From Candidatus Bathyarchaeota archaeon (GTDB lineage Archaea; Thermoproteota; Bathyarchaeia; Hecatellales; Hecatellaceae): a stretch of 20,630 nucleotides of DNA. Within the stretch, counting starts at the first letter, position 1, and each line of letters begins with the position of its first letter. A program made the position numbers and the translations under genes. Positions 1-20,630 of the stretch are shown in pieces. Where the stretch lies: the NCBI GenBank assembly GCA_052246995.1, contig JBQPWD010000008.1, forward strand, positions 1 to 20,630. The letters run 5' to 3'. The notes beneath the pieces were generated by a model. The model saw only the letters and a list, made by a program, of their open reading frames with translations, did no database searches and was not told where the DNA came from.

Positions 1-358
1 GAAACTCACCCATATCAGGAAGAGGATACGGTACGGTAGGAAGATGAATAGAAGGCTCCACAGTATGCCATTCAGAAAAATTCAGTTTTACACCTCCTAT
101 AAGTCAATGGAGCTAGGCTTTAAGCCGGAAACCGTTAAAGCGGAAAACACCTCTAGGACATGTCCGGTATGTGGCGAGTTGAATAAGCCGAATAGGCATG
201 TCTTTAAATGTGGAAAGTGTGGCTTCCAAGCAGATAGACACTTTATCGCTGCATGGAATATAGCCATGAAACTTCCAATGTGGGGTGCTTTACCGTTGCC
301 CCCGAAAGCCATCCATGAGGCCATAGCCAAGGTGGAACGGATAGTTATAAAATGTTAA
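1..358 (+). CDS. tnpB: TnpB (IS200/IS605- or IS607-type OrfB) RNA-guided endonuclease, C-terminal part; 5' end outside window
   Basis: Frame open from base 2 (KLTHIRKRIRYGRKMNRRLHSMPF...). TSRTCPVCG...FKCGKCG zinc ribbon and RuvC-III-like DRHFIAAWNI. Confidence 0.9.
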   Translation, partial: KLTHIRKRIRYGRKMNRRLHSMPFRKIQFYTSYKSMELGFKPETVKAENTSRTCPVCGELNKPNRHVFKCGKCGFQADRHFIAAWNIAMKLPMWGALPLPPKAIHEAIAKVERIVIKC

Positions 359-372
359 CTATCCGACAACGG
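278..372 (+). ncRNA. Predicted TnpB omegaRNA scaffold / element right end (element A)
   Basis: ATGTGGGG...CCCCGAAAGCC motif; perfect 10-bp hairpin CGGATAGTTA (338-347)/TAACTATCCG (356-365); ACCGTTG (292-298) complementary to CAACGGT (367-373). 330-371 is identical to the reverse complement of 18020-18061. Boundaries approximate. Confidence 0.65.
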
Positions 373-373
373 T

Positions 374-450
374 TCAACGGAAAATCCCCACATCCTGGAT
401 TTTGCCTCACCACATATCGGGCTATGCTTTTGCCCATTCGGCGCCTTTTC
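374..450 (-). pseudogene. Short scrambled TnpB-like remnant abutting element A right end
   Basis: Minus frame reads EKAPNGQKHSPICGEAKSRMWGFSV (PNG, PICGE and MWG motifs typical of TnpB C-termini); DNA GATGTGGGGATTTTCCGTTG resembles the scaffold start of the other TnpB ends in the window. Confidence 0.5.
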
Positions 451-529
451 CATCGAGGAAGGGCCCAAAAGCGTTATATAAACTTAACTATTTATGAACT
501 GCTGATAAACCCTTTGGAGGGTTTAAAGC

Positions 530-952
530 TTGAGTGAGTTTAAATGTGAGATATGTAGTCTGAGAAATGCCAGGTATGTTTGCCAGTATTGTGGAAAAAG
601 GATTTGCGACTACTGTAAGATTCCAGGTAGGTTTACGTGTATAGAATGCTGTAGAACAAGGGAGGGTTATGGTGAAACTCAAGTTAAGGTTGAAGGTACA
701 CCTTTTCTACCATCAAAGCTCATGTTTATAGGCTTTATAACCATGCTTTTAGGCTTTATATTCATACTTGTTTCAGCTTTTCTTGGAGGCTTAGCTGGAG
801 AAGGCTGGGGTGGAGGGGTTTTCTGGATATTTCCCCTACCACCAATACTTATCGGCTCAGGCCTGACAGGAGTTTCCATACTTTTAACATTTTTAACCTT
901 CATAATTTTTTTCATCATCCTTGTCTTTCTCATGGTTAAAACCTTAAGATAA
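530..952 (+). CDS. Zinc-finger + membrane protein (DUF131-like C-terminus)
   Basis: Four CxxC pairs at N-terminus; hydrophobic segments around GGGVFWIFPLPPILIG. TTG start after GGAGG; TTATATAA box at 474-481. Confidence 0.7.
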   Translation: MSEFKCEICSLRNARYVCQYCGKRICDYCKIPGRFTCIECCRTREGYGETQVKVEGTPFLPSKLMFIGFITMLLGFIFILVSAFLGGLAGEGWGGGVFWIFPLPPILIGSGLTGVSILLTFLTFIIFFIILVFLMVKTLR

Positions 953-16735: not shown

Positions 16736-17816
16736 ATTTGCCTTTAAAACCTAAAAGGTTTTTAGGTTTTAGGTATAGTTTTTTTTCAGTGTCTTTTACC
16801 GTGAAGCCAAGTTTGTATGCTTTTGTTCCATGTTTTTCTGCTATGTCGACAACCATTTCGGCGTCTTGCTTGGAAACAACGATGCAAAAGCCTATTCCCA
16901 TGTTGTAAACGTTGTACATTTCCTCATCTGGGATTTTTCCGGTTTTTTGGATAAGTTTAAAGATTGGTTGGGGTTGGGGGAGGTTTTCTAGGATGTAGCT
17001 GTAGCCTTCTCCAACTCTTAAAAGGTTGAGTAAACCTTTACCTGTAATGTTTGCTAAAACTTTGATGTTTAACTCGGCTTTAACCATTTCCATGATTTCT
17101 TGAACGTAGATTTTTGTTGGTTTAAGAAGTTCTTCGCCAAGCGTAGATTGAAGTTCGTCAACGTATGTAAAAACGTCCATGTTGGTATTGTCAAGTAAAA
17201 CTTTTCTGGCCAGGGTTAAACCGTTGCTGTGGATTCCTGAGCTTTCCAGTCCGATGACAACGTCGCCTTCGGCCAAATTTTTACCGTCAACAATTTTTTC
17301 CAGGTTTACGATGCCTATACACATGCCTACAAGGTCGAAGCCGTATCCTTCCCTTTTACCTTTAATCATTTCTGGGAGTTGGGCAATTTCTCCTCCAACA
17401 ATTGTAACCTTGGCAAGCTTGGCGCCCTCGTACAGTCCTTTGGCTATTTCTTCAAGCATTTTTTTGTCTGGTTTTTGGATGGCAATGTAGTCTAGGAAGG
17501 ATAGTGGTTCAGCGCCTACACAGATGATGTCGTTAACGTTCATGGCAACACAGTCAATACCGACCGTGTCATATTTGTTCATGAGCTGGGCTATGAAAAC
17601 TTTTGAGCCTACTCCGTCGGTTTTTAACGCTAAACCGTATTTACCTAGAAATTTTACTACACCTGCAAAATGTCCTATGGGTATGGCAGGTTTACCGATG
17701 CCGGTCTTAAAGTTGAATGTTTTACTACACCATTCAAGCATGGATTTTAAGGCTTTATCCTCCTCCTCAACGTCAACACCAGCATTCCTGTATGTTTTAG
17801 GAGTATCTCCAACCAA
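16722..17816 (-). CDS. purM: Phosphoribosylformylglycinamidine cyclo-ligase (AIR synthetase)
   Basis: TYRNAGVD, TDGVGSK, DCVAMNVND, SSGIHSNG, YNMGIG. Confidence 0.96.
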   Translation of the reverse strand: MVGDTPKTYRNAGVDVEEEDKALKSMLEWCSKTFNFKTGIGKPAIPIGHFAGVVKFLGKYGLALKTDGVGSKVFIAQLMNKYDTVGIDCVAMNVNDIICVGAEPLSFLDYIAIQKPDKKMLEEIAKGLYEGAKLAKVTIVGGEIAQLPEMIKGKREGYGFDLVGMCIGIVNLEKIVDGKNLAEGDVVIGLESSGIHSNGLTLARKVLLDNTNMDVFTYVDELQSTLGEELLKPTKIYVQEIMEMVKAELNIKVLANITGKGLLNLLRVGEGYSYILENLPQPQPIFKLIQKTGKIPDEEMYNVYNMGIGFCIVVSKQDAEMVVDIAEKHGTKAYKLGFTVKDTEKKLYLKPKNLLGFKGKFRKV

Positions 17817-17920
17817 GTAAAACCACCAAAAGGTTTGTAGAAAATTGGGGTTCTGAGTTAAGTAGAGATAGATAATGTTTCATTACCTCTACTTAACTCT
17901 TCCCTCTCGATTGATTCATA
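17794..17920 (+). repeat. Direct repeat, copy 1 (127 bp identical to 20504-20630)
   Basis: Base-by-base match at offset 2710; contains purM start/RBS and TnpB element B right end. Confidence 0.95.
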
Positions 17921-18019
17921 GAGGGCTTTCGGGGTGAACCCAGACCCCCACATCTGAAGATTCAGCACAGCTATTATGTTTCTATCCATTACTAAACTAC
18001 ACTCCTTGCATTTCATTAA
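17848..18019 (-). mobile_element. TnpB element B relic: C-terminus and right end
   Basis: LMKCKECSLVMDRNIIAVLNLQMWGSGFTPKALYE...ST*; 13-bp hairpin GAGTTAAGTAGAG (17855-17867)/CTCTACTTAACTC (17887-17899). Confidence 0.82.
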
Positions 18020-18478
18020 CGTTGTCGGATAGTTAACATTTTATAACTATCCGTTCCACCTCAGCCTTAGAGGTTTCACAGATGGCTTTCAGGGGTAACG
18101 GGGCTCCCCTCATCCTGAGCATGTTTAAACATGCGGTTACATCTCTGTCGTTTTCAACCCTCAGAATATGCGGGTTAGAGCTTACTACCATGACGTTTGA
18201 CTCGTTGACATCTATCGCTATCCAGTCATCGGGATTCGATAAATCTACATCCTTTTTGAACGACACTATTATTTTACTTTCATTCATTGTTATCTCACCA
18301 GTCTTCAGCTTTCCTTCTTTCCAAGCATCTATGAACTTCTTCTGATACTCACCATACCTCTAAAGTCCTCTAATAGCTTCCTTACATTATCGTTTATCTC
18401 ATATCCGAAGGGGACACCGGTTATTACTTCCACGATTAGAGTATACTCAGAAATGTTATGTAAAGTTAACTATTCAGG
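18020..18478 (-). mobile_element. TnpB element C: internally deleted non-autonomous derivative retaining both ends
   Basis: GTG 18433 MEVITGVPFGY...LLEDFRGMV / GEYQKKF...WIAIDVNE (RuvC-I)...HILRV joined directly to ENDRDVTACLNML (RuvC-III); right end shared with element A; imperfect left-end palindrome at about 18450-18476. Confidence 0.85.
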
Positions 18479-18592
18479 AACTGCTACCGAACCCCTCAGC
18501 CTTCAACTTTTCAACTATTTCCTTTGCCTCTTCCTCCTTCACTTTACATTCCCCACATGTATTTTTACACACCAAGGTTTTAAGGTTTTAAG

Positions 18593-18858: not shown

Positions 18859-19738
18859 GTTACAAAACAAAAATCCCATAAGAGGGAATTGAAAGCTTTG
18901 TGAATAGGTAGTCTAATGTTTTGAATGTTCCAGATGTGTTACAAAACAAAAATCCCATAAGAGGGAATTGAAAGATACAGTTTCACAAACCTCTCTAAGA
19001 CTTGTTCTAATCTGTTACAAAACAAAAATCCCATAAGAGGGAATTGAAAGGCCGTTTTTATTACCACTTTCTCACCCCCTTATCTTTAGTTACAAAACAA
19101 AAATCCCATAAGAGGGAATTGAAAGGCCGTTTTTATTACCACTTTCTCACCCCCTTATCTTTAGTTACAAAACAAAAATCCCATAAGAGGGAATTGAAAG
19201 TTAACTACTATGTGGAACTTATGGATAGGTGAAACATAGTTACAAAACAAAAATCCCATAAGAGGGAATTGAAAGTTGATTAAACCTCTTTTAATCGCCA
19301 ACACTGTGAAAAACTGTGTTACAAAACAAAAATCCCATAAGAGGGAATTGAAAGTACATGTACATTTTTTAAGCCTTTAAAGTGTAAACTTCGTTACAAA
19401 ACAAAAATCCCATAAGAGGGAATTGAAAGCCAATGTTTTGTCTTCTTGCATTATCCTTAAAAAGATTCCGTTACAAAACAAAAATCCCATAAGAGGGAAT
19501 TGAAAGAAAACAGGACAGACAACAGCGTCGTAGGCGTAACTTGTATATGTTACAAAACAAAAATCCCATAAGAGGGAATTGAAAGTAATAGACGCTAAAA
19601 GTCAAGCAGAGTTTACGGATAAGCTGTTACAAAACAAAAATCCCATAAGAGGGAATTGAAAGAACTCCATCGCTATTTCTGGTGGGAGAGCTTGCAGTAG
19701 TGTTACAAAACAAAAATCCCATAAGAGGGAATTGAAAG
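18859..19738 (+). CRISPR. CRISPR array: 12 identical 37-bp repeats, 11 spacers of 38-42 bp
   Basis: Repeat GTTACAAAACAAAAATCCCATAAGAGGGAATTGAAAG starting at 18859, 18938, 19014, 19089, 19164, 19239, 19318, 19393, 19470, 19549, 19626, 19702; the ATTGAAAG 3' end is the class 1 (Cas6) handle. Confidence 0.98.
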
Positions 19739-20481: not shown

Positions 20482-20526
20482 TTACATGTCAGCATCCTTA
20501 TACGTTTTAGGAGTATCTCCAACCAA
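20482..20526 (-). pseudogene. 14-codon stub of a second purM 5' end
   Basis: MVGDTPKTYKDADM* versus intact MVGDTPKTYRNAGV. Confidence 0.8.
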
Positions 20527-20630
20527 GTAAAACCACCAAAAGGTTTGTAGAAAATTGGGGTTCTGAGTTAAGTAGAGATAGATAATGTTTCATTACCTCT
20601 ACTTAACTCTTCCCTCTCGATTGATTCATA
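20504..20630 (+). repeat. Direct repeat, copy 2 (runs to window end)
   Basis: Identical to 17794-17920, including the element B right-end hairpin (20565-20609). Confidence 0.95.

Follow-up and report, generated by a model that had tools for sequence, protein, structure and literature searches.

The window, the whole 20,630-nucleotide stretch analysed here, is the entire contig C8 of a 1.53-Mb Candidatus Bathyarchaeota archaeon assembly comprising 17 contigs (G000). It opens inside a tnpB-bearing element, referred to as element A, whose right end is followed on the opposite strand by part of a related non-autonomous element (the sibling) and then by a host gene:

2..358, + strand: 3' part of tnpB of element A, an open frame of 118 aa truncated by the contig start (PF07282, 3.7e-16; aligned to relatives L049 and L051)
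278..372, + strand: predicted omegaRNA scaffold of element A, overlapping the 3' end of tnpB (comparative structure of 34 sequences)
367..372, + strand: right end of element A, CAACGG, with the GG crossover dinucleotide at 371-372
373..392, + strand: predicted guide of element A, antisense to the 5' half of the sibling scaffold
373..511, - strand: 5' portion, 139 nt long, of the non-autonomous sibling that A interrupts, comprising its left end, a scrap of tnpB and the 5' half of its scaffold (393 to 373)
466..511, - strand: left end of the sibling, with GG at 511-510, the family left-end motif (family D8) and a TATA-like TTTATATA at 482-475
530..952, + strand: host gene encoding a zinc finger and a membrane part, which directly follows a TIGR00304 gene in relatives

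A sequence check found the motifs quoted in a first-pass annotation exactly where it had placed them: ATGTGGGG at 278-285, CAACGG at 367-372, and a 22-mer at 373-394. That annotation had also put the right end of A at 372 with the guide beyond it, and the other copies agree. A second copy on contig C10 shows 100% identity to window 255-374 and diverges beyond, and a copy on contig C17 parts from the window after 373, which rules out an element reaching past 395. Across 69 junctions, drawn from 67 GTDB loci (one of which matches twice) and the window itself and including two chance matches in bacteria, conservation ends after the GG, and the +1 position is simply T-biased (53 of 69). Inspected by eye across L002-L068, the non-T bases at +1 cluster in a tnpB-only subfamily. 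A separate locus, L069, was discarded as a chance match to the right-end motif. The two identical right ends in this genome suggest that A moved recently.

The open frames of A cover the first 137 aa of tnpA and the last 118 aa of tnpB. The tnpA fragment lies on C17, where it scores 143.6 bits against NF033518 (cut-off 110) and runs off the contig. The assembled part of TnpB carries the zinc finger and the RuvC-III Asp (233-235). L049 and L051 are full-length relatives with TnpBs of 393 aa, and both have all three residues of the RuvC D-E-D triad; for A the third Asp is assembled and RuvC-I and RuvC-II fall in the gap. In both relatives tnpB lies downstream of and overlaps tnpA, the corresponding part of A again being in the unassembled gap. 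They pass the TnpB model NF040570 (133.7 and 111.7 bits, cut-off 100), whereas against NF038280 (IS607_TnpB) L049 reaches 32.8 bits for a cut-off of 350 and L051 and A are not listed. By these profile scores, the relatives of A are another TnpB clade, outside the NCBIfam IS607_TnpB.

The scaffold of A is predicted to form a nexus stem-loop (282-303), two further stem-loops (SL2, 309-335, and SL3, 338-365) and a pseudoknot joining 293-297 with 368-372. We compared 34 distinct scaffolds, obtained from 45 extracted sequences plus the window. In this alignment 90.7% of cells were paired, with 57 two-sided changes, a level matched by 0 of 500 shuffles and above all slid controls; kinship among the sequences inflates such counts, and two of five structure measures fell within the shuffle range. 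Anchored pairing was 15-23 of 23 for each nexus pair, and compensatory changes occurred in the nexus and SL2. The pseudoknot strands, CCGUU and AACGG, were complementary in 99.4% of cells but are near-invariant, so that they show no covariation, and the search pattern itself had set the 3' strand; the pseudoknot is thus predicted from complementarity and known architecture. No omegaRNA family matched when the window was compared with Rfam. CAACGG occurs twice, at 367 and 375, because pseudoknot strand 1, read in antisense, is identical to strand 2. We also considered a shifted register, in which the guide's CAACGG would act as the pseudoknot strand and the guide would start at 381, and rejected it, having found no GGG-flanked genomic site within 3 mismatches.

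Homology upholds the earlier proposal that A inserted into another TnpB-family element. Read on the minus strand, 373-511 aligns from the left end to CCGTT with family mini-elements of 215-250 bp, which are intact at L035, L015, L025 and L029. The antisense likeness of 373-394 to the scaffold start of A, equalled by 9 of 60,000 random genomic 22-mers, is explained by this homology, since the stretch is sibling scaffold. At the insertion point the sibling is one base longer than its closest relatives (L015, L025 and L035). Its scaffold 3' half and right end, through its own CAACGG, are found at G000:C17:472-542, where they directly adjoin an oppositely oriented IS607 left end followed by tnpA. 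This position of the 3' half, abutting the left end of A, rules out the tail-to-tail arrangement that had been proposed: A instead lies inverted within the sibling scaffold and splits it. Subject to the C17-C8 join, A is likely inverted inside the omegaRNA region of a non-autonomous sibling of about 212 bp.

The join was examined by comparison with relatives. The C17 and C8 pieces map to opposite ends of L049 (95% and 86%), with about 1,010 nt missing. In the same-genus genome G001, the counterparts of the C17 flank (81.7% identity) and of window 511-952 (75.9%) meet at L071:1480-1485, an empty site with neither element that lies within a gene run of chorismate mutase, TIGR00304 and the zinc-finger-membrane gene. 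In 10 of 11 loci of relatives the window gene has a TIGR00304-like gene immediately upstream; in G000 that gene lies on C17, which anchors the join. The sibling halves and the G001 empty site join over one GG, with no target duplication beyond the shared GG. Because the right end on C10 is identical and its left end is unassembled, the repeat has collapsed, and the pairing therefore rests on target continuity and synteny. It is likely that C17 (tnpA and left end) and the window (right end and 3' part of tnpB) hold two portions of one element. The G000 assembly holds no contigs shorter than 5,297 bp (short ones were perhaps dropped, and could hide copies), and sequencing runs X1-X5 consist of contigs of other strains or relatives, none of which bridges 372/373 or C17-C8 or gives information about RNA ends. 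The nested insertions alter the last TIGR00304 residues and separate the next gene by about 2 kb (G000:C17:531-816, window 510-530).

Family left-end junctions carry GG in 23 of 26 cases and GGG in 22 of 26, followed by T in 19 of 23. A itself has GG at both termini and a (G)GG target, with CAACGG at the right end and GGGG/TT (the slash marking the junction) at the left, where the motif is supplied by the sibling's C-run on the antisense strand. There are no terminal inverted repeats; the left-end motif also matches a subterminal stretch of the right end once that is reverse-complemented. By eye, across L002-L068, the left end is far more variable over the 7-9 nt just inside its GG than over the rest. 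The 6-mer GGGGTT occurs 789 times in the genome, and therefore the insertion site needs no special targeting; insertion into such dispensable DNA was likely tolerated. IS607 elements use (G)GG targets (excerpts of PMC6188088), and the TnpB TAM of CboIStron, TGGG, equals its insertion motif (excerpts of PMC10690162).

From these observations we propose the following history. A mini-element would first have entered the TIGR00304 membrane-protein gene, at a GG within its final codons, and A would then have inserted in inverted orientation at the antisense GGGG/TT of that mini-element, matching the family's GGG/T preference. This second insertion would have split and disabled the mini-element's own omegaRNA. 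Since the guide of A is flanking sibling DNA, its TnpB is predicted to be directed to the empty site left when A excises; cutting at the donor joint once it is restored, or at an allele of this locus that lacks A, would drive retention by recombination. The right-end junction of A is preceded by ACGG and not by GGG, and A's own junction is therefore proposed to escape cutting. We consider it quite probable that A is an IS607 element nested in a sibling scaffold whose guide serves ordinary donor-joint retention, a reading in which the join, an intact middle, expression and cleavage are presumed. The locus is then likely a real but ordinary one-off nesting, with a guide likely aimed only at its own empty insertion site.

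The same sequences could have been brought together by an assembly artefact or local rearrangement, in which a collapsed repeat or an inversion of related ends joined A to unrelated family sequence. The junction does lie 372 bases from a contig start that the collapsed repeat caused, and independent read support is absent, but two contigs hold complementary sibling halves that meet at one GG, both junctions are clean IS607 junctions, and the outer flanks restore the gene order of G001; we regard an artefact as highly improbable. A more consequential alternative, transposon-versus-transposon homing, takes the insertion into a scaffold as a selected strategy by which the TnpB of A cuts intact siblings and converts them to A-bearing copies. 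By construction the exact guide target, the restored mini-element at A's own locus, is a sibling with a GGGG TAM, although it is also the ordinary donor joint. Uninterrupted siblings in other genomes come close, with 1 mismatch in 16 nt at L035 and 2 each at L015 and L025, but these siblings are one base short at the insertion point and so all mismatch guide position 1, within the range (positions 1-13) where single mismatches abolish the activity of one IS607 TnpB (excerpts of PMC11061315). In run X4, one contig agrees with 374-402 except for a single difference, the match starting from 374 and not 373. Elsewhere in the assembled genome there was no guide site within 2 mismatches in 16 nt, the best GGG-flanked site sharing 7 TAM-proximal nt, and the scaffolds of A, the C10 copy and element B (described below) gave no match at a 4-mismatch limit in 16 nt; the absent contigs of less than 5,297 bp could conceal copies.

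Wider searches for homing targets gave a similar picture. Among 401 class genomes no family element came within 2 mismatches of the guide, the matches being a CRISPR repeat of G192 and three non-family sites. Viral contigs contained no TAM-plus-guide match and 31 right-end-motif matches, none in a family context. The mini-element was not found in 60 relatives, which gave four weak matches, G021 alone matching over the guide, in a distant scaffold that differs from it at positions 1-3. Nor does the junction recur, given that 0 of 65 archaeal right-end flanks resemble an antisense scaffold and a metagenome junction scan returned 0 real cases; both scans demanded the exact 15-18-nt right-end motif, and the lone metagenome match, L082, is unrelated DNA with no element. 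The guide searches of the assembled genome, the class genomes and the viral contigs gave no further TAM-flanked family match, and the suggestion that the nuclease is aimed at sibling elements is not supported. L029 does show a mini-element beside a tnpA start, in a record with an N gap (L029:117-620, where the initial ~110 nt of a left end of tnpA type precede the mini-element in the same orientation, with a duplicated end). Homing would be a new form of transposon conflict if true, and the searches yielded no support for it; we judge it very unlikely. The same low standing applies to its fuller version, in which A would be armed against the sibling subfamily, cutting intact copies (located on contigs missing from the assembly or in other cells of the population) or near-cognate L035-type elements, destroying their omegaRNA and homing in, with the drive throttled by guide fold-back. 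As a separate observation, CRISPR repeats of G192, a genome of another family, match the guide over 16 of 16 nt, and some of them are preceded by GGG, which is probably coincidence; at L085 and L095 (G192:C2:230160-230662 and C6 near 474100) the repeats share 17 nt with window 372-388. The CRISPR repeats of G000 itself gave no guide match.

A different function for the same anatomy is that the omegaRNA is self-silenced, with the guide pairing to the nexus 5' strand (279-285) and to the pseudoknot strand (293-298) and displacing 368-372. When the scaffold was folded with 20 nt of flank, 279-285 was predicted to pair with 386-392 and 293-298 with 375-380, giving -45 kcal/mol with the guide on the nexus, as against -33.1 for the scaffold alone. 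At 37 C the gap to the native-competent ensemble was -1.8, -3.6, -6.9 and -11.0 kcal/mol for 14, 16, 18 and 20 nt, and control flanks were at least as strong in 51, 23, 4 and 0 of 65 cases, respectively (65 natural flanks, three non-element flanks having been excluded). At 65 C the 20-nt gap was -7.7, still stronger than all 65 controls, and 1 of 65 was as strong at 18 nt. The fold-back that had been suggested is therefore predicted, in computation, for guides of about 18-20 nt or longer, whereas at 16 nt or less the effect is ordinary.

Several published observations bear on whether such folding would matter. The pseudoknot is essential for CboTnpB, an IS607 TnpB (excerpts of PMC10690162 and PMC13521648), and repeat-spacer pairing harms Cas12a (excerpts of PMC7102956). 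The TATA-like box at 482-475 also faces the right end of A, so that an antisense transcript from a putative promoter in the sibling left end may add to silencing. Reported native guide lengths pull the other way, being about 18 nt in excerpts of PMC10690162, where the effect is marginal, and 10 non-conserved nt in excerpts of PMC11061315. When the flank is extended to 45 nt, a hairpin farther downstream reduces the gap to -5.1, and the folding model omits pseudoknot energy and TnpB binding, both of which favour the native fold. Because of these omissions we hold self-silencing to be a tentative and somewhat doubtful reading, under which the window copy would lack TnpB protection and the C10 copy would be protected. 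Even with donor-joint retention as the preferred function, possible self-folding of the guide could block it at the window copy of A.

The lineage of A shares with the IS607 family (IS607, IS1535 and archaeal ISC1926, as described in excerpts of PMC6188088) a TnpA with a MerR-type HTH and serine recombinase that overlaps tnpB (the overlap as seen in relatives L049 and L051), GG termini and a (G)GG target, as well as the lack of target duplication and an imperfect subterminal inverted motif. It differs in its preference for GGG/T, in spanning several hot-spring archaeal groups, and in spawning non-autonomous elements of 200-550 bp that keep the omegaRNA, in one of which A is nested. The excerpts on CboIStron (PMC10690162, PMC13521648) describe a scaffold with three stem-loops and a nexus-to-3'-end pseudoknot, ending in CGG as in A, and a G-rich TAM equal to the insertion motif, a right-flank guide and donor-joint cleavage for retention; the counterparts in A are predicted from its sequence. 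Unlike CboIStron, A has no group I intron, and any competing RNA structure would come from the guide itself. ISFba1 and the RAGATH-18-associated IS607 TnpBs (excerpts of PMC11061315) resemble the A lineage in a TnpB of about 390 aa and a G-rich TAM, but the window holds no Rfam omegaRNA match. The nearest parallel to the fold-back is crRNA guide-repeat mispairing in Cas12a, in which spacer pairing with the constant part lowers activity (excerpts of PMC7102956); that case concerns engineered guides, and ours is a natural TnpB for which the pairing is predicted. None of the titles and abstract openings found described a TnpB whose guide is antisense to the scaffold of its own family, a search outside which most subscription papers fall, and the available portions of PMC12558985 and PMC10055086 hold nothing on nesting.

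The locus gives a worked example of an uncharacterised archaeal IS607 lineage, with its ends, a GGG/T motif that is the predicted TAM, and a covarying scaffold of about 95 nt. The 393-aa TnpB relatives, which come from hot-spring archaea, are candidate compact and possibly thermostable editors. The nested copy is also a natural test of whether TnpB is shut off by a guide that is complementary to the nexus and pseudoknot of its own scaffold, for which the identical C10 copy provides the control.

Other members of the family, and a second family, were observed in the same genome. A family mini-element of ~140 bp at G000:C2:84088-84210 has a variant right end, TGGCGG, and no nexus. Within the window, element B (18020-18495, - strand) is a deletion derivative of A's family of ~475 bp, its right end short of one G; its left flank has a paralogue on C10, a gene remnant that lies about 0.6 kb away from A's second copy. 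We considered whether element B, beside a second tnpB, is itself a clean nesting and ruled this out, as the C10-paralogous left flank and the missing G look like a deletion join. The neighbouring sequence (17849-18019, - strand) comes from a second TnpB-like family, of which it is the 3' end; its tail resembles an omegaRNA and ends in C's and not GG. Its putative pseudoknot pairs GGGTT with AACCC, where A's family has CCGTT with AACGG, and may be a compensated variant. Further along the window is a CRISPR array (18859-19738) of 12 repeats of 37 nt with one spacer duplicated and no cas gene among the window ORFs. A 141-bp direct repeat (97%), found at 17780-17920 and 20490-20630, comprises the purM 5' end, the right end of the second family and flank. 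Element B, the CRISPR array and a vapBC-like pair lie between its copies, and the contig ends in the second of them; the region may be an integrated element, or an omegaRNA may have been duplicated here along with its guide.
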